Of a stretch of 48,427 bases of DNA, positions 8,007 through 48,427 are shown in pieces. This stretch comes from a virus (Duplodnaviria; Caudoviricetes). The notes under the pieces are model-generated. The model had not been told where the DNA came from. It searched no databases and saw nothing but the letters and a program-made list of their open reading frames with translations. Where the stretch lies: the IMG/VR virus record IMGVR_UViG_3300033067_002291, positions 1 to 48,427 of that record; one strand, written 5' to 3'. Position numbers and translations under genes: made by a program. Positions within the stretch are counted from its first letter, which is position 1; the number at the start of each line of letters is the position of its first letter.

Positions 8007-8055
8007 TACCCGGTTTAACAGGTGTTAAGCAAACGTTAGTTAAACCGGGTATAGT
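8007..8055 (+). promoter_or_regulatory. Class 1 promoter copy (8026-8055) embedded in a perfect 13-bp inverted repeat
   Basis: TAAGCAAAC-N12-GGGTATAGT; arms TACCCGGTTTAAC (8007-8019) and GTTAAACCGGGTA (8039-8051). Confidence 0.65.
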
Positions 8056-9518: not shown

Positions 9519-9548
9519 TAAGCAAACAAAAAGCCAATCGGGTATAAT
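9519..9548 (+). promoter_or_regulatory. Class 1 promoter TAAGCAAAC-N12-GGGTATAAT heading the plus-strand arm
   Basis: Same elements and spacing at 8026, 15735 and 21677. Confidence 0.8.
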
Positions 9549-15734: not shown

Positions 15735-15764
15735 TAAGCAAACAACAACAAAATTGGGTATAAT
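15735..15764 (+). promoter_or_regulatory. Class 1 promoter
   Basis: TAAGCAAAC-aacaacaaaatt-GGGTATAAT(TACCC). Confidence 0.8.
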
Positions 15765-19195: not shown

Positions 19196-21019
19196 ATGGT
19201 TCTTCCATATCTTAACCTAATAAAAGAGTTCCTGGTTTCCTTTAACGAGGAAACTGGGGAAGGGGAATTGCCTAAAAAGCTAACAGTTAACCTTGCCACC
19301 GGAAAACTAAGCAACAATTCCACCGCAATTAGTTATTGCATTTCTCAGGGAATGAGCTTACTTGAGGTAAGGTTTAGGTTAGGCCGTGGGGAAAGCCCTA
19401 AAGAACTTTTACGGGATTATTCACTGGCTAAACCTTTTGGAGAATTCTGTGAGGAATGGTGTTTGTTACGGGGAATTCCTTTCTCAGTTGGAAAAGCCGC
19501 TAAGCTGAGAGAAGCCCTAATTGACGGACTTCCAACAATTCTCCTACCCTATTTCGACATTCATGGCAATTTAATAGACGTTGTTTACCGCAACCCAACT
19601 ACCGGAAAGAAACTAAGAAACGCAAGTAATGTTGCCAGCCTTTTTAACCCCTATGAGAAACGGGGGAGTTTTTCAACAGTTGTAATAATTAAAGGAGAGA
19701 GCGACGTTCTCAGGTTAAAGACGGCCCTTGAGGAAAACAACGTAACTGACGTAGGGGTTTATGGAATTCCGGACAACTCTATTCAAAGGGAGTTTATTAG
19801 AGAACTTCAAGCCTTTACTAGAGTTGTAGTTGTTCCGGCAACTGATAATCATGGAGCCCTTTTAGTAGCTAACGTTACTAAGTTAGCTCCTGAGTGGGAA
19901 ATAGTTGAACTTCCTTGGCAACCTGGTCAAAGAGGTAAAGACTTCTCCGATTGGATAACTTTCCCAGAAAACGATTTCTCTGCTTTTCTTCAACAACTAC
20001 GCCCTTCCCACCCCCCAAGAGAAATTCTCGACGACAACCAATTTGCAAGTGAAACAACTAACCCATTGGAGGCGAAAACCTGGATTGTTTCTAACCTTAT
20101 TGCTAAAGGCGACATTGCTATTTTAGGTGGAGCCCAAAAGGCTAGGAAAACTTGGCTAACAATGAACCTAATTAAGGCAATTGTTAACGGCGAGCCTTTG
20201 TGGGGAATTCCTAACCTAATTGGGAACCCTGCTACCCGAATTCTTTTCATTGAAGAAGAAGGAAACATTCACGACTTCAAAGAGAGACGGCGAGTTGTTC
20301 TTGGCAACGTTAACGCTGAGAATGTTTTCTGGCTCCATGACTCAGGGCTTAAATTTGATAACGATGCAGACATTGAATGGCTTCTAAGAAAAGTTAAGGA
20401 ACTAAGAATTGACTTAATTATTGGCGACCCAATGCAAAACTTAAGAAACGTTGTTAATGAAAATGCTTCAGGAGACGTTCACCACTTTTGGGAAAACGTT
20501 AAAAGACTTAAACGTGAAACTGGAATTGCCTTATTCTTTCTTCACCACTTTAACCAAGGTGGAGAAGCTGAGAAAGGTTGGGCGGCTCTTAGAGGAACAA
20601 CCCGTGATGCTGGACAAGCTGATGTTGGCCTATTCACCCAAAAAATTGAAAAACCTTACCACTTTAACAAACTCTGCATTGATGGAAGAGAAGTCCATTT
20701 AGAATATCCAAATGGGCGTTTCTTCCAATTAAAGTTTAATGCAAGTGTTAGAGACAATAAGTTAATTAGAGCGGAGTTCAAATGCGTTATGGAGGGAACT
20801 ACTAAAGCTACGCCAGAAACCCTTCTAAATGAATTCATTAACTCAGGCAGAGAGACTTGGCTACTTGAAGAAGCCGCCACCCACTTTGACAAAGACCCTA
20901 AAACAATTAAGAACTGGATTGAAAAGTTGCCACAATTAACAACCACCCCACCTGCCCCAGGTTGCCAAGTTAGAATTATTAAAGCAGGAGAGAAGCCACA
21001 ATTAAAGATAAGCGAATGA
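19196..21019 (+). CDS. Primase-helicase (degenerate TOPRIM + RepA/AAA_25 helicase + C-terminal HTH)
   Basis: KGESD and GKDFSDW (TOPRIM-like), WIVSNLI, GAQKARKT (Walker A), LIIGDP (Walker B), LHHFNQ, LRGT. Confidence 0.8.
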   Translation: MVLPYLNLIKEFLVSFNEETGEGELPKKLTVNLATGKLSNNSTAISYCISQGMSLLEVRFRLGRGESPKELLRDYSLAKPFGEFCEEWCLLRGIPFSVGKAAKLREALIDGLPTILLPYFDIHGNLIDVVYRNPTTGKKLRNASNVASLFNPYEKRGSFSTVVIIKGESDVLRLKTALEENNVTDVGVYGIPDNSIQREFIRELQAFTRVVVVPATDNHGALLVANVTKLAPEWEIVELPWQPGQRGKDFSDWITFPENDFSAFLQQLRPSHPPREILDDNQFASETTNPLEAKTWIVSNLIAKGDIAILGGAQKARKTWLTMNLIKAIVNGEPLWGIPNLIGNPATRILFIEEEGNIHDFKERRRVVLGNVNAENVFWLHDSGLKFDNDADIEWLLRKVKELRIDLIIGDPMQNLRNVVNENASGDVHHFWENVKRLKRETGIALFFLHHFNQGGEAEKGWAALRGTTRDAGQADVGLFTQKIEKPYHFNKLCIDGREVHLEYPNGRFFQLKFNASVRDNKLIRAEFKCVMEGTTKATPETLLNEFINSGRETWLLEEAATHFDKDPKTIKNWIEKLPQLTTTPPAPGCQVRIIKAGEKPQLKISE

Positions 21020-21651
21020 AAGAACTAGAAAACAAAACCCCAAGCGTTCGTGCTAAAAAGGTAATTAACCGGCCAATGGCCCCAAACGTTGAAAAATTTG
21101 AAACTTTCCTTCATAGCCAAATGAGCAACTTAGTTAGTTGGGGAAGTTTCAAAGGGCTACCAAAAGAACAAGCAGAGGACGTTGCTCAAAACGCAGTTAT
21201 TCGCTTCCTGCGCCATTACGATCCAGAGAAAACCAAACCAAAAACTTTTCTCTACTTCTGCATGAACTTGGAGATTTACGAACACAAAAGAAAACTTCGA
21301 AGCAAAGAAAGCGGTGGGCGGCCTACTAGCGTTCCAACAACTCACCTTGACCCAGAAACTTTAACTAAGTTAAGTGATGCCAGAGGGAACGTAAACCTTC
21401 CAACTGTTTTTGATAACTTCTCAACTGAAAACACTAAAAGCCTTTTAACTAAATTAGGCCAAGTTCTAACTCAAAGAGAACTTCTAGTCTTCTGCTTAAA
21501 GGCTCTGGGATATAGCGAAAGTTCAATTATTAAATTGATTCCTGGAAATTTGAGTAGAACAGTTATTTACAAAATTTGGAGAGAGGCAAAATTCAAAGTT
21601 GCTAACAGTTTGCCCCTCTTTGAAGAAGAGCTTTTGAACTTTGTTGCTTAA
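21016..21651 (+). CDS. Sigma-70/ECF-like protein 2
   Basis: AEDVAQNAVIRFLRHYDPEKTKPKTFLY (region 2) and LTQRELLVFCLKALGYS (region 4). Confidence 0.78.
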   Translation: MKELENKTPSVRAKKVINRPMAPNVEKFETFLHSQMSNLVSWGSFKGLPKEQAEDVAQNAVIRFLRHYDPEKTKPKTFLYFCMNLEIYEHKRKLRSKESGGRPTSVPTTHLDPETLTKLSDARGNVNLPTVFDNFSTENTKSLLTKLGQVLTQRELLVFCLKALGYSESSIIKLIPGNLSRTVIYKIWREAKFKVANSLPLFEEELLNFVA

Positions 21652-21676: not shown

Positions 21677-21706
21677 TAAGCAAACAACAAATAAATGGGG
21701 TATAAT
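21677..21706 (+). promoter_or_regulatory. Class 1 promoter
   Basis: TAAGCAAAC-aacaaataaatg-GGGTATAAT(TACCC). Confidence 0.8.
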
Positions 21707-23199: not shown

Positions 23200-23220
23200 A
23201 TTAATTAGGTGGTTTGCGTA

Positions 23221-23997
23221 ATGGCAGTTAAAATGATTATTTACGGGGAACCTGGTAGTGGGAAAACTACTTGGCTAGGTAATTCAAAGAACGGAATTCT
23301 AACAGTTCCCAACGCCTGTCCGGTTCTTTACCTTGACTTTGATGACAAGATTAAGCCAATTAGAAGCACCGTTAACGACATTCCTATTAGTGAAATTGGT
23401 TCATGGGAAAGCTTTCAGCCAGACAAAATTAACCGGCTAAGTTTCCAAGTAACTGACCGAACTCTCGACGCGGTTTACAAACAGCTTAACCGTTTGTGTG
23501 GAGAGGCTGGGGCAATAACAGAGGACAACTTCCCAGCAAAAACAATTGTTGTTGATAGCTCAACCCATCTAAGCGAGTTGCTAAGCCGCTACACGCTAAA
23601 ATACCACAAAGTGAATCGAGTTAGCCCAGAAGTTTTGAGCCAACAAGACTACGGAATGGTTGCTAACTTGCAGAGCAGAATTCTCTCTAACTTAATTAGT
23701 TCAGGCCACAATGTAATTTTACTTTGTCATGTTCGCCAAGACCATTACAAAGACGGTTCCTTAAAGAGTGAAGAGCCTTTGTTCATTGGTAAGATGACAA
23801 GGCAAGTAATTCCAGGGAAAGTTGATTATGGAGGCTACCTCTACATTAACAAAAGTGGCAATCGACAAATTGATTGGACAGAAAAGAGCAACGCAGTTGT
23901 TCAACGATGGGTTAATCAAAGCATTGAAATTGGGGTTGACAAAGACCTTCCCACCGATGCAGACTTTAGCAAACTAGCCTACCTTTTCGACAACTAA
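23221..23997 (+). CDS. AAA_24 / Sak4-like ATPase
   Basis: IYGEPGSGKTT, TIVVDS, QQDYG, VILLCH; located between the exonuclease and the SSB-like gene. Confidence 0.82.
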   Translation: MAVKMIIYGEPGSGKTTWLGNSKNGILTVPNACPVLYLDFDDKIKPIRSTVNDIPISEIGSWESFQPDKINRLSFQVTDRTLDAVYKQLNRLCGEAGAITEDNFPAKTIVVDSSTHLSELLSRYTLKYHKVNRVSPEVLSQQDYGMVANLQSRILSNLISSGHNVILLCHVRQDHYKDGSLKSEEPLFIGKMTRQVIPGKVDYGGYLYINKSGNRQIDWTEKSNAVVQRWVNQSIEIGVDKDLPTDADFSKLAYLFDN

Positions 23998-24001
23998 CAA
24001 C

Positions 24002-24223
24002 ATGGAAACCGTTCAAACAATCCTTAACGTTCTTTTTGTAGTTCATGTAATTCTATCAACTGCCTCTCTTCAACGGCTCAACAGAATTACAACTACAACA
24101 ATCAAAACAGTTACCCGTCTATCCATTCAGCAAATGAACAAAGGGGCAGTAGATAAACTGATTCAAACCCTTCTGTCAGAAGAACCACCTACCCACCCCA
24201 CTCAGGATGAAACTTCCCACTAA
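24002..24223 (+). CDS. Small protein with a hydrophobic N-terminus; its stop codon lies inside the ribozyme
   Basis: 73-aa ORF; TAA 24221-24223 falls in hammerhead loop III. Confidence 0.55.
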   Translation: METVQTILNVLFVVHVILSTASLQRLNRITTTTIKTVTRLSIQQMNKGAVDKLIQTLLSEEPPTHPTQDETSH

Positions 24224-24259
24224 GGGAAGTCCACTAATTAAGTTAGTGCTGATGAGTCC
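24205..24259 (+). ncRNA. Type II hammerhead ribozyme
   Basis: GGAU-GAAA-CUUCCC-ACUAA-GGGAAG-UC/-CACUAAU-UAA-GUUAGUG-CUGAUGA-GUCC has all core nucleotides and three stems; predicted cleavage after C24231. Confidence 0.88.
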
Positions 24260-24323
24260 AATTGAATTAGCCAACAAGTTTGGCCTTTTCAGTTACTTTA
24301 TTTGCTTATAGGAAAAAACGATT

Positions 24324-24791
24324 ATGTCAAAAGACCAAAACCAAAACGTCCCGTTCAGTCTCTCTTTCAATGATGTTGTTGAGCAGGAAGCTAATAACAA
24401 CCCAAGTGAATCTACTGTCTACACAAGTGGAGTTAAAATTACCTCAGCAGTTGCTCAACGTTCTAAGCCTAAGGATGGCGCGGCTCAAGGAACTGCAATG
24501 ATTAAACTTACACTTGCCCATGAAGATTGGGGTTCACAAGTTAAGTATGTTTGGGCAATGTGTGAAGGTGGTGGAGCAGATATGGCTACCGGAATTAAGC
24601 GACTTGTTAAGGCCACGAAGGCCAATGTTGTCGTTAAGGATTTCGATAGTGGTGAGGAGGTTGTTACTTCTTTGATTGGTAAGACAATCCAAATTAAGGA
24701 AGAACTCCGAGACAACAAAGACCCTAACGGGAACACTGAGTTCGACGAGAAAGTTATGCGAATCACTGCAATTGGTGCAGATTCTGACTAA
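24324..24791 (+). CDS. Putative single-stranded DNA-binding protein (DUF669-like)
   Basis: GTAMIKLTL, LIGKTIQIK, acidic tail; standard position after exonuclease and Sak4-like genes. Confidence 0.6.
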   Translation: MSKDQNQNVPFSLSFNDVVEQEANNNPSESTVYTSGVKITSAVAQRSKPKDGAAQGTAMIKLTLAHEDWGSQVKYVWAMCEGGGADMATGIKRLVKATKANVVVKDFDSGEEVVTSLIGKTIQIKEELRDNKDPNGNTEFDEKVMRITAIGADSD

Positions 24792-24819
24792 CTAACAGTT
24801 AACCCTTAACCAAACAACC

Positions 24820-24841
24820 GGAGCCCTTTAATTAGGGCTCC
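24820..24841 (+). other. GC-rich stem-loop without a U-tract, 3' of the SSB-like gene
   Basis: GGAGCCCT-ttaatt-AGGGCTCC followed by A/C-rich sequence. Confidence 0.7.
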
Positions 24842-24864
24842 AACAAAAGCCCAAAAAGTAATTC

Positions 24865-25155: not shown

Positions 25156-25342
25156 GATTAAATTTCAAGTTCCTGAAAAAGGCGACACTCTTTCTTTTAC
25201 AGTTTACCCAATTGAAGGCTACAGAGAAATTTGGTATGATGTTAGTGGAAATATTCAAACTCTTAATTCTTATGCGTTTGGTATAAAAGAACTACTTAAC
25301 ATCCCTACCTCAGTTGAAATTGAAGAGCCAACAGTAAAATGA
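25136..25342 (+). CDS. Hypothetical protein
   Basis: 68-aa ORF with ATGA coupling to the polymerase gene. Confidence 0.55.
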   Translation: MKNKTIKIKFQVPEKGDTLSFTVYPIEGYREIWYDVSGNIQTLNSYAFGIKELLNIPTSVEIEEPTVK

Positions 25343-27690
25343 TTTCCCTCAAAGTTCCACCAGCTTATCAAGTTTGTGATTGTTTTAGTTGCCCGTTAAA
25401 CTATCAACGAAGTGCAATTCCTGCAATGTTCGTTAATCCCCCTGAGCTAAGCCCCAACGTGGAAACTGTTTTCATTTTTTCCGCTCCTGATGAGGCTAGC
25501 TCAGTTGGTGGAACAGATAAGGGCGTTAAGTTAATCAATTCACTTGCCCAACAAATGGGCGCTGACCCAAACAGTTTTGTTTGTTTGCCTTTAGTTTCTT
25601 GCTCCACAACGGAAATTCCCTTCGAGGCTACAATTCACTGTAACACTTGGCTCAGGTTAGCCATTGACTCGCTTAAACCTTCTAGGGTAGTTCTAATGGG
25701 GGCCTTAGCTCAAACCGTCTTCCAGACCCGCTCAGAGGCTGAAAACACGTGGTTTTTGAGCCCAAAAAATTTCAACTTTGAATGTAACGTAATTAATTGC
25801 ATTGAACCTAAAGAAGTTCTTAGAACCCCAAAAAGAATGTCTAACTTTATAAGAGTTATTCAAAAGGCTCTCTTTGGTTCAACTGAATGGATTCCACCTC
25901 TTCCAGAACAACTAAGCCAAAGTCCAAAAGAAACCGCTGAATTCATTAGAAACATTTCAAAACAAAGCGCAACTAACCATTGCAGTTTGGATTTGGAGTC
26001 CACAGAAGGAACGGACACTTATTCCAACTTCTGCCTTAACTTAGGCTTCTACTACCCTGAAAGGGAAAGAGTTCCTTTTGTAGTTCCCGGCCTTCACTTA
26101 TTCCATTCCGAGGTTCGTGAAGCCTTTAACAATTGCCAAGCAACTTTTGTAGGGAGTAACTTTCAGAACTTTGACGCTAAGTTTGTTTTCCACCTTCATG
26201 GCATTGTAATCCCTAACCTAGTTGACCTTGGGCACATTGATTTCTGCATTGATGAAAGTGAAACAGGTGAAGATGGAATTGTTAGAAAAGGTTTAGGCTT
26301 TTTAGCTCCTTTGTTAATTAATGCCCCTGACTACAAAGCAGAAATGGCTCCATACATTAAACAAATGTTCACTGCGCCAATTGAACTAGCTAACAAATAC
26401 GTTGGCTGGGATGCTTATTGTTCTTGGGGTTGTTATGAAGTTTTAATGGCTCAACTTGATGAACGGGCTACAAACCTTTTAACCAAAACAATTATTCCTA
26501 ACTGTAAAGTTCTCCGAGAAATGAGTAACGATGGGGTTCTAATTGACCGCCCATACCTGACAGAACTAAGTAAAACTTTTGACGTTGAACTGCAAACTTT
26601 AGCGGACAACTTTGGTTGGAACAACGCAAGAAAAACCGGCGATTTTAACCCTGGAAGTTGGCAACAAATGCAAAAGTTTCTTTATGGCAAAATGGGAATA
26701 ACTCCCCTAGACGCTAAGAAAGGCACTGGAGAACCAGTTCTGCTACAAATTCTCGAAAAAGGCAACTTAGCTCCCGAACAAGTTCAGGCAATTAACAACC
26801 TCTTAGAACTCCGGGAAATCTCCAAACTAAAAGGAACTTACACTGACGGCCTCCGCTCTTTGCTAACTCCTGAAGACTTCCTCCACACTGACTACCTAGG
26901 AACTGGAACTAACACCGGAAGGCCATCAAGCAAAAACCCTAACCTGCAAAACATTCCTACTCGAACTGAATTAGGCCGAGCTATTAAACGGGCTTTCATA
27001 GTTCCCAGCGGCTTTAGGTATTTCTTTAATGCTGACTATTCCCAGTTGGAAGTTAGGCTAATGGCTATTGCTAGTGGCGACCCTAAGCTAATTGAGCTAA
27101 TTAATTCAGGTGAAGACATTCACCGCTATGCGGCAAGTATCTGGTTCGGTGTACCCCAAAATGAAGTTACCAAAGAAATGCGAGCTTTTCAGAAAACTGC
27201 TAACTTTGCAATTCTTTACGGCTTAACTGAGAAAGGGGCGGGCTATCAACTAGGCTTGTCACAAAGTGAAGGGGCTAGAATTGTTAGAACTTTCAAAAAA
27301 GAAACTTTTTCTGGCCTAGGAGCTTGGGTTGACGAACAACAACAATTCGCCCTTAAACACAACTATGTTCCTTACCCCCTGAATTCATTCCGCGTTAGGC
27401 ATTTTCCTTTAATAACTAACCACAACTTAGAAGACGTTCGCAAACATTGCGTTAACAGCCCAATTCAAGGCAGAGGTAGTGACTTCTGTTTAGCAGGAAT
27501 TCAACGGGTTAGAGCGGCAGGGCTTTCGGCCCGTTTAGTTGTTCACGATTCCGTTAGCGGTTATTGCAATTCAGAAGACGAGGCCCGTGAAGTTGTTAAG
27601 CTAATGGAAGTCAGGGATTTTGCAGTTCCGTTAGTTCTTGATTGTTCAATTGGGGGCAATTGGCGCGACCAAACTGAGGTAAAACTTTGA
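25339..27690 (+). CDS. polA: Family A DNA polymerase with an N-terminal UDG family 4-like domain and a 3'-5' exonuclease
   Basis: Exo I DLES, Exo II NFQNFD, Exo III YVGWD; TNTGRPSSKNPNLQNIP; motif A ADYSQLEVR, motif B KTANFAILYG, motif C VHDS; N-terminal CFSCPL...KPSRVVLMG. Confidence 0.95.
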   Translation: MISLKVPPAYQVCDCFSCPLNYQRSAIPAMFVNPPELSPNVETVFIFSAPDEASSVGGTDKGVKLINSLAQQMGADPNSFVCLPLVSCSTTEIPFEATIHCNTWLRLAIDSLKPSRVVLMGALAQTVFQTRSEAENTWFLSPKNFNFECNVINCIEPKEVLRTPKRMSNFIRVIQKALFGSTEWIPPLPEQLSQSPKETAEFIRNISKQSATNHCSLDLESTEGTDTYSNFCLNLGFYYPERERVPFVVPGLHLFHSEVREAFNNCQATFVGSNFQNFDAKFVFHLHGIVIPNLVDLGHIDFCIDESETGEDGIVRKGLGFLAPLLINAPDYKAEMAPYIKQMFTAPIELANKYVGWDAYCSWGCYEVLMAQLDERATNLLTKTIIPNCKVLREMSNDGVLIDRPYLTELSKTFDVELQTLADNFGWNNARKTGDFNPGSWQQMQKFLYGKMGITPLDAKKGTGEPVLLQILEKGNLAPEQVQAINNLLELREISKLKGTYTDGLRSLLTPEDFLHTDYLGTGTNTGRPSSKNPNLQNIPTRTELGRAIKRAFIVPSGFRYFFNADYSQLEVRLMAIASGDPKLIELINSGEDIHRYAASIWFGVPQNEVTKEMRAFQKTANFAILYGLTEKGAGYQLGLSQSEGARIVRTFKKETFSGLGAWVDEQQQFALKHNYVPYPLNSFRVRHFPLITNHNLEDVRKHCVNSPIQGRGSDFCLAGIQRVRAAGLSARLVVHDSVSGYCNSEDEAREVVKLMEVRDFAVPLVLDCSIGGNWRDQTEVKL

Positions 27691-47959: not shown

Positions 47960-48354
47960 TAGTTAAACACTCCACAAATTGCCTTAAACAAGGAATCTTT
48001 TAGCTTTTGACTTTTTGGCAGTTCATCATAAGGAACAAAACAAGGGTGAGTTTTTGCCTCAACGTCCTTAGTTTCTCCATAAGTCCAACCATCAACCTCT
48101 TTAACTTTAAGCCAACTTTCATGACTTGCACTTGCAGGGGCATTTGGGTTTTGAAAGTTAAACAGAACTCCTTGAATTGCTGATTTCTTTTGCCATTCTG
48201 GAGCAAATTCCCAATCAACTTGGGAGTTGTCACCAAGGTTCTCACAATAAGCTTTATTAGCTTGGTGAGTAATTCGGGCCACTTTTTCTACGTGGGTTCG
48301 CCTTTCAAAGGCTTCTTGTGTTTCTGTTGTGTTGTTGTTTGTTTCGTTGTCCAT
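47959..48354 (-). CDS. RyR-domain phage protein, allele B
   Basis: HESWLKVKEVDGWTYGETKDVEAKTHPCFVPYDELPKSQKLKD matches the ryanodine-receptor repeat pattern H..W...GW.YG..D...K.HP..VPY..LP. Confidence 0.8.
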   Translation of the reverse strand: MDNETNNNTTETQEAFERRTHVEKVARITHQANKAYCENLGDNSQVDWEFAPEWQKKSAIQGVLFNFQNPNAPASASHESWLKVKEVDGWTYGETKDVEAKTHPCFVPYDELPKSQKLKDSLFKAICGVFN

Positions 48355-48427
48355 TATTTTTCCTCAACCCTTGGTGTTCCCGTGGGTTCTTTAACTGTGG
48401 GGTTTCCCCTGTCTTTTGCTTTCGCTA
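48044..48427. repeat. Right copy of the imperfect terminal repeat, including the portal 3' end
   Basis: Aligns to 1-376; the portal C-terminus reads EPTGTPRVEEK here versus EPTGKPRVEEK on the left. Confidence 0.9.

Follow-up and report, generated by a model that had tools for sequence, protein, structure and literature searches.

A complete type II hammerhead ribozyme was confirmed, as judged from sequence, at 24205-24259 (plus strand) of the analyzed DNA (the window, 48,427 bases), a tailed double-stranded DNA phage record with portal, terminase and major head protein genes, and cleavage is predicted after C24231. It lies in a recombination and replication operon, between the genes for a Sak4-like ATPase and a likely single-stranded DNA-binding protein (SSB), and we regard it as a working, probably slowed, mRNA-processing site, with a probability of about 0.58. 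The phage is uncultured and the element is uncommon in its details, yet it is of no new kind, hammerheads having long been known in phages; what is particular is the combination of a G10.1-U11.1 pair, a stop codon in loop III and a lone position between Sak4-like and SSB-like genes. The role of hammerheads in phage genomes is described as still open (PMC6155905), partly because most of them flank small genes of unknown function. In the window the ribozyme parts the genes of two proteins that are known partners, and an effect of cutting on the SSB-to-Sak4 ratio should therefore be measurable.

Structure of the ribozyme

The ribozyme, identified by descriptor search and by our own covariance model, has an open stem II and loop-closed stems III and I. 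Stem II consists of 4 bp between GGAU (24205-24208) and GUCC (24256-24259), and its 5' strand is followed by GAAA (G12, A13, A14 and A15; 24209-24212), by stem III, in which CUUCCC (24213-24218) pairs with GGGAAG (24224-24229) across loop III (ACUAA, 24219-24223) to give 6 bp in addition to A15.1-U16.1, and by U16.1-C17 (24230-24231), which precedes the predicted scissile bond. Stem I joins CACUAAU (24232-24238) and GUUAGUG (24242-24248) in 7 bp around a 3-nt loop I, the core CUGAUGA occupies 24249-24255, and the 3' tail, AAUUGAAUUAG, extends over 24260-24270. All 13 core positions (C3, U4, G5, A6, N7, G8, A9, G12-A15, U16 and H17, by the criteria in the methods of PMC3088659) are unchanged, and the core-flanking pairs 1.1-2.1, 15.1-16.1 and 10.1-11.1 are all paired, as C-G, A-U and a G-U wobble, respectively. 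An earlier note on this DNA had described such a core and stems at these positions on the plus strand, and every element was found there by inspection of the sequence and by the descriptor search; its assignment to type II, in sense orientation and with the cut after C24231, is likewise supported.

When both strands were searched with descriptors of all three hammerhead types, this was the only site identified in the window. Shuffling the window 150 times with its dinucleotides preserved yielded 0.013 matches per genome to a relaxed descriptor (stems of at least 4/3/3) and no match with stems of at least 7/4/6. In addition, the ribozyme sequence was identical in contigs from six of seven public runs (X1-X6; two studies, which may include the window's own source), and G10.1-U11.1 is therefore unlikely to be an assembly error; the remaining run (X7) had no contig over the ribozyme, and there was no RNA run among those listed for the window.

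Relation to other phage type II hammerheads

A scan of IMG/VR with a type II pattern free of loop constraints, covering 13 of the 64 parts of the collection, returned 130 loci, to which a structure filter was applied. The resulting general sample comprises 106 distinct G10.1-C11.1 ribozymes, including same-locus neighbours and two from one locus (L002), in which related phages are counted separately and are not independent events. Separately, a match at L001 was rejected as a chance one in coding sequence. Of the ribozymes in the general sample, 58 whose stem I has 7 bp and whose loops are short were used to build a covariance model. With this model, 24202-24265 of the window scored 59.2 bits (E 3e-14), in the upper part of the range of hammerheads outside the model-building set (25-64 bits), with no second site in the window as good as E 1. 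Two-sided changes occur at 13 of 17 stem pairs in the 58-member alignment, which describe the class and do not test it, as the set was chosen for pairing. The class signature (a 4-bp stem II, an A directly 5' of it, U1.7 and a U-G pair there) is kept in full by the window.

The Rfam scan that the earlier note had suggested as a check did not recover the ribozyme: no hammerhead match was returned in the window at the gathering threshold (37 bits for RF02276, Hammerhead_II) or at E <= 10. This miss is due to the narrow stem II of the RF02276 model, which misses most members of the class, as only two of 41 members in 20 test loci pass it and 12 of 41 appear at E <= 1. A match to PK-repBA (16.5 bits against a threshold of 45) was rejected as chance.

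The window ribozyme shares the core consensus, the open stem II and the closed stems I and III with RF02276 and with the type II hammerheads of Perreault et al. (PMC3088659), which also lie between phage genes in polycistronic messages; it differs from RF02276 in its 4-bp stem II, 7-bp stem I and 3-nt loop, which fit a U1.7-A contact better than a pseudoknot of loop I with the 3' tail, in its G10.1-U11.1 pair and in escaping detection by that model, and from the prophage members (PMC3088659) in being a single copy rather than part of a cluster. Closer likeness was found to the short-loop phage type II hammerheads of IMG/VR (L002-L133, L230-L254), with which it has in common the stem lengths, U1.7, the U-G closing pair, the A at -5, a small upstream ORF and a GUC site. 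However, the upstream stop codon of the window is at +12, in loop III, whereas theirs are mostly at -9 to -4, and the next start codon is 64 nt away instead of about 24. Members of the class typically lie between a stop and a start codon, the next ATG being at a median of 24 nt downstream (n = 99). The next gene also differs: it is SSB-like in the window, whereas no SSB or Sak4 was found among 92 ORFs downstream of class members. Only 34 of these 92 have a PHROG match (58 have none), 11 of them with named functions (such as HNH, anti-restriction, helicase, ATPase and integrase), and the blank is a weak one, as the SSB-like protein of the window has no PHROG match itself. As a separate observation, phrog_1221, a family of unknown function, is encoded directly 3' of a type II hammerhead in eight of the 92 cases (L010, L024, L037, L047, L053, L058, L120 and L124).

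The G10.1-U11.1 pair

The earlier note had also pointed out that G10.1 (24256) faces U11.1 (24208) instead of the usual C, which is borne out: all 106 members of the general sample have C at this position. U11.1 is the third base of an Asp codon (GAU) in an upstream 73-codon ORF on the plus strand. A scan for a 3-bp stem II with U11.1 gave 78 loci, of which four passed the structure filter, and these represent two lineages, L166/L202 (the same as L002/L003) and L159/L205; this corresponds to about one in 100 when compared with the several hundred G-C copies expected in the collection. When 185,579 prokaryote genomes were scanned for the G-U pattern, none of seven matches passed the structure filter (one, L226, had a weak score of 20.5 bits), and the supplementary alignments of PMC3088659 may contain G-U examples. 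The second G-U lineage (L159:694-767, minus strand, and L205, plus strand) has a 9-bp stem I and a 6-bp upstream helix that can cover the core.

L166 and the near-identical L240 differ within the ribozyme at one base, a synonymous GAC/GAU change. Because of this single difference, and because four of five other ribozymes into which an upstream ORF reads have G-C, the G-U pair looks like a tolerated, sporadic synonymous change. A linked design of G-U and loop III stop codon, suggested by L002/L003, was rejected on the same four of five G-C ribozymes and on L159/L205, which combine G-U with a stop at -4. In the folding model, the G-U version costs 1.3-2.6 kcal/mol relative to the G-C version. 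No measured rate for C11.1U was found in the open-access literature, including the accessible text of PMC9901934; a natural U10.1-U11.1 mismatch and stems II of 1-2 bp have been reported in active hammerheads (PMC3088659). The window offers a natural G10.1-U11.1 variant, for which the near-identical G-C/G-U pair L240 and L166 may serve as a control.

The upstream ORF and the stop codon in loop III

The 73-codon ORF (24002-24223, plus strand), which has a hydrophobic N-terminus, starts 4 nt past the stop codon of the Sak4-like gene and spans stem II, GAAA and stem III, ending at UAA (24221-24223) in loop III, at +12 and 8 nt before the cut. Its codon score exceeds those of all 806 off-frame windows and lies at the 10th percentile of 403 in-frame windows, the last 33 codons scoring below the first 40, and a protein search returned only the ORF itself and no homologue. 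From its start position and codon score the ORF looks real, which agrees with the earlier note in placing the stop codon of an upstream ORF in loop III. The further claim that translating ribosomes run into the ribozyme holds as to the overlap, given that stop, but not as a special feature, because overlap is the norm of the class. Among the 102 ribozymes with enough flank, upstream ORFs of at least 40 codons have their stop at -9 to -4 from G12 in 67, at -30 to -10 in 25 and inside the ribozyme in one, with none in loop III and nine elsewhere or absent. A terminating ribosome, from its usual footprint, would normally cover stem II in such arrangements, and the upstream stop often supplies the conserved A 5' of stem II. 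The window has CAG at -6, where members of the class often have UAG, and the ORF continues for six codons to its UAA, so that the upstream gene extends nearly as far towards the cut as it can.

In a targeted census of the whole IMG/VR collection, restricted to ribozymes with URR at +12, 27 loci with 17 distinct ribozymes were found. A true stop is present in 11 of the 17, and the upstream ORF reaches it in five of these 11 (L237, L240, L166, L244 and L250), which represent three lineages, whereas the other six upstream ORFs end at -6 to -10. In one lineage (L237, L240 and L166), the stop at +12 is kept while the codon alternates between UAA and UGA. From these sequences, read-in to a loop III stop is a rare but recurrent layout. 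No paper on stop codons inside phage hammerheads was found in the open-access literature. In a group of related G+C-rich phages (L166, L202, L237, L239, L240, L242, L245-L249 and L254, at about 690-770), a gene ending in ...HKDETGN reads into the hammerhead with UAA or UGA as the loop III stop, and both G-C and G-U versions of the 10.1-11.1 pair occur; this group provides a ready set for testing read-in and wobble.

Competing folds and the tertiary contact

Stems I and III are predicted with probabilities of 0.97-1.0, and the competition concerns the core and stem II. In inactive folds on the plus strand, ACUCA (24200-24204) pairs with UGAGU (24253-24257) of the core and stem II, and GAUUCA (24160-24165) pairs with UGAGUC (24253-24258). 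Upstream anti-core helices of at least 5 bp are present in 42 of 88 class members and are thus not special, and helices of at least 6 bp on the 3' side occur in 16 of 93. The active fold costs 1.7-4.7 kcal/mol relative to the ensemble, a value inside the span seen in the class, where 16-55 of 87 members fare worse. When 60 nt upstream are included, the probability of stem II is 0.002-0.005, compared with class medians of 0.01-0.15, in a model that omits tertiary contacts and Mg2+, and at 15 C the competing folds are predicted to gain further. On the 3' side, AUUAGC (24266-24271) competes for GCUGAU until a downstream hairpin is complete. The transcript that the earlier note had proposed for an in vitro test (24195-24275) is predicted to misfold in this way, with the core GCUGAU paired to AUUAGC, and a negative cleavage result with it would therefore not refute the ribozyme.

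This downstream hairpin (24260-24294, plus strand; predicted pair probability 0.94-1.0) absorbs the 3' tail, for which a probability of 0.94-0.96 was computed. The tail had been suggested to compete for stem I, which the folding does not support (predicted probability 0.00 at every transcript length tried), or to form a pseudoknot with loop I, a contact described for most type II hammerheads (PMC3088659). In the window, such a pseudoknot could reach 4-5 bp only if the upper end of stem I opened, and it would be no longer than in 41 of 93 members of the class, which reach 4 bp by the same count. In solved hammerheads, U1.7 forms a Hoogsteen pair with L2.4, the last base of the stem II tetraloop (PMC11875169). 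U1.7 of the window (24238) stands opposite G (24242) and closes the 3-nt loop I; it is present in 85 of 89 class members with a stem II of at least 4 bp, and the U-G pair in 53 of 58 aligned members. Similarly, A lies directly 5' of stem II (24204) in 85 of the same 89. Because the A before an open 4-bp stem II occupies the L2.4 position, we infer that A24204 is equivalent to L2.4 and is the predicted tertiary partner of U1.7, and this contact, by analogy, is more likely than the pseudoknot to be the conserved one of the class.

Operon context and relatives

The operon is headed by a promoter-like motif, TAAGCA-N18-TATAAT (21677-21706, plus strand), which is repeated three to four times in the genome and presumably acts as a promoter. 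It contains, in order, a 161-aa ORF, a PD-(D/E)XK exonuclease gene, the Sak4-like gene, the 73-codon ORF, the ribozyme and the SSB-like gene, with a family A polymerase gene further on; the earlier placing of the site in a recombination and replication operon is supported. The 161-aa ORF, which has no Pfam match, presumably begins in a RuvC-like manner. The Sak4-like single-strand DNA-annealing ATPase (23209-23997, plus strand) matches phrog_124 (E 6.5e-26) and Pfam AAA_24 (PF13479; E 1.4e-19). The 155-aa product of 24324-24791 (plus strand), whose start is 64 nt past stem II, is likely an SSB with an OB fold, DUF669-like: it has no PHROG or Pfam match, its Atlas neighbours include DUF669 clusters, and one homologue (P0011) has a weak DUF669 match (E 0.01, under the cut-off), while its structural model (pLDDT 64) matches PrgE with Z 7.7 (rmsd 4.3, 99 aligned residues) and many SSBs at Z about 4.

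Sak4 has been reported to be stimulated by a neighbouring SSB (PMC5928155), and in Healer a DUF669 SSB together with an AAA protein repairs CRISPR breaks (PMC13687109). As in these systems (PMC5928155, PMC13687109), the window has an exonuclease gene and a Sak4-like AAA_24 gene, here next to a candidate for an OB-fold, DUF669-like SSB gene, but a ribozyme parts the two partners, and the DUF669 membership of the 155-aa protein is tentative. The word ribozyme is absent from PMC13687109.

Scans of IMG/VR proteins (SSB-like and Sak4-like) and a tblastn search of GenBank phages returned no relative. One syntenic relative (L212) was found, with identities of 48% for Sak4, 53% for the primase-helicase and 31% for the SSB-like protein, and with TTGACA-N17-TATAAT at the place of the promoter-like motif. 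Neither the descriptor nor the covariance model detected a hammerhead in its 155-nt gap between the Sak4 and SSB-like genes, and this one relative cannot tell gain from loss of the ribozyme. In place of the 73-codon ORF and the ribozyme, L212 (8137-8265) carries a hydrophobic ORF of 32 codons together with a 6-bp hairpin, GCUGAA/UUCAGC, which loosely resembles the window sequence just past the core and is too short to be called a remnant. Hammerheads as a regular part of Sak4 modules were rejected, as the descriptor found none in 38 Sak4-like loci (L212 included); Rfam gave no match in 20 of 27 Sak4-like loci.

Proposed role and alternatives

In the preferred reading, that of message processing, the operon message would start at the promoter-like motif, stems III and I would fold locally, the 4-bp stem II would close the junction and U1.7 would dock on A24204, and the RNA would then be cut after C24231, probably more slowly than in G-C relatives. 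Ribosomes finishing the 73-codon ORF would melt the ribozyme in passing, as is expected for nearly every member of the class, which would lower the rate without acting as a switch. Cleavage would likely part the nuclease and Sak4-like genes, on the 5' side, from the SSB-like gene and the replication genes that follow it. The upstream piece would retain its stop codon, with the stem III hairpin and a cyclic phosphate at its 3' end, and no stop-less message would arise because the stop is 5' of the cut; the downstream piece would carry a 5'-OH, start in the stem I hairpin and have the SSB-like start codon 92 nt further on. The downstream message should thereby receive its own, probably longer, lifetime, giving more SSB than Sak4. 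5'-OH ends resist RNase E; in hosts with RNase J such an end may be degraded instead of protected, as in the glmS case.

Several published results are consistent with message processing, which has been proposed for prophage hammerheads in polycistronic messages since 2011 (PMC3088659). Hammerheads next to prophage genes cleave native transcripts of about 2 kb, both in vitro and in E. coli; of 18 consensus candidates, 14 proved active; and in a halovirus a mapped transcript end lies no more than 3 nt from a hammerhead cut that precedes a helicase gene (PMC3088659). In E. coli, a synthetic hammerhead insulator whose product starts with a 5' hairpin increased mRNA levels about 2-fold and protein levels 2-10-fold (PMC6206723). 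HHphage of haloviruses HF1/HF2, like the window ribozyme, is a lone hammerhead that precedes a replication gene in the transcript of a lytic-type phage, but its core contains an insertion and it stands at the head of its transcript, 13 nt from the helicase gene, as described in PMC3088659, whereas the window ribozyme has a consensus core and lies inside an operon. The full core and three stems, the 59.2 bits, the class signature, a cost of the active fold that is usual for the class and the stops at -30 to -4 upstream of 92 of 102 class members argue for message processing; the cost of G-U and its absence from 106 of 106 members, the low stem II probability in long context, the competitors at 15 C, and the lack of hammerheads in L212 and in the 38 Sak4-like loci, which means that no conservation at the site was seen, argue against it.

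An unlikely alternative is that the ribozyme is a decaying or neutral passenger, which came alone or with a small-ORF cassette, has lost the abutting stop and the G-C pair and cleaves too slowly to matter. Its single copy, its absence from the syntenic L212, the joint presence of two rare departures and the competing folds would all suit such a history, as would an upstream ORF of 73 aa, exactly the median length upstream of class members (69 complete ORFs), and a G-U pair that is sporadic in another lineage, where near-identical relatives keep G-C (L166/L202 versus L240). Against it speak the intact state of the core, of stems I and III and of the signature positions (U1.7, its U-G pair and the A at -5), though the stems are A+U-rich like the genome, a score in the upper class range and the tolerance of weak 10.1-11.1 pairs in active natural hammerheads (PMC3088659).

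A translation-gated switch, in which ACUCA and GAUUCA of the upstream coding sequence hold the core off until a ribosome on the last codons of the ORF frees it, appears distinctly unlikely, as does its detailed form, in which a pause (for example at Pro-Pro, 24185-24190) would fire the ribozyme, a terminating ribosome would block it and SSB supply would track translation of the ORF. Masking 24150-24204 raises the stem II probability from 0.00 to 0.95-0.97 in transcripts ending at 24264-24294, and when a footprint of 30 nt is moved along the ORF, the probability is highest, 0.64-0.85, at the first Pro of Pro-Pro; the stop at +12 is, moreover, kept in another lineage across a UAA/UGA change (L237, L240 and L166). 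However, the peak is one codon wide and depends on an assumed footprint, the gain reaches only 0.09 for a transcript to 24330, which makes the effect fragile, upstream anti-core helices as long as these are present in 42 of 88 members, and low stem II probabilities in long context are usual for the class. The G-C pair in four of five other read-in ribozymes likewise speaks against linking G-U and read-in. It is quite improbable that a stem II weakened by G-U and a ribosome pause at Pro-Pro together would switch the ribozyme on and so set SSB relative to Sak4. If gating were true, the window would contain a natural hammerhead of a phage for which both the regulatory input and the output are defined. 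Very improbable is a decay trigger or attenuator, with a cut that starts downstream decay or exposes the weak U-tailed hairpin at 24270-24294, lowering SSB and polymerase. Ribozyme-triggered decay is known from glmS, which counts in favour of such a trigger. So do the toxicity to E. coli of phage SSBs, including a DUF669 one (PMC13687109), and the inner stem at 24270-24284 with its U run, a weak terminator-like site; but such sites are not above shuffles in the window (6 versus 4.9 +/- 2.4), class members lie mostly just ahead of start codons, and cleavage hardly alters access to the SSB-like start region (4.46 versus 4.01 kcal/mol). For the same lack of change in computed access, release of the SSB ribosome-binding site by cleavage was rejected.

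Other features of the genome

The promoter-like motif, in the form TAAGCA-N18-TATA(A/G)T, occurs four times on the plus strand ahead of gene blocks (8026-8055, 9519-9548, 15735-15764 and 21677-21706), and in two of the four copies TATAAT lies within a GGGTATAATTACCC palindrome. A sigma-70-like protein is encoded at 21016-21651, which L212 is without. The ends of the record (1-376 and 48044-48427) are direct repeats of about 380 nt that are 87-91% alike, with an 8-nt offset between their two parts, whereas identical copies would be expected of a true terminal redundancy. In the family A DNA polymerase (25339-27690), the first 170 residues weakly resemble a uracil-DNA glycosylase (E 0.004, which does not pass the cut-off). 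In addition, an 11-bp hairpin follows the SSB-like gene (24817-24844), with a U run on the minus strand only, and may be a stabilising end or a minus-strand terminator.
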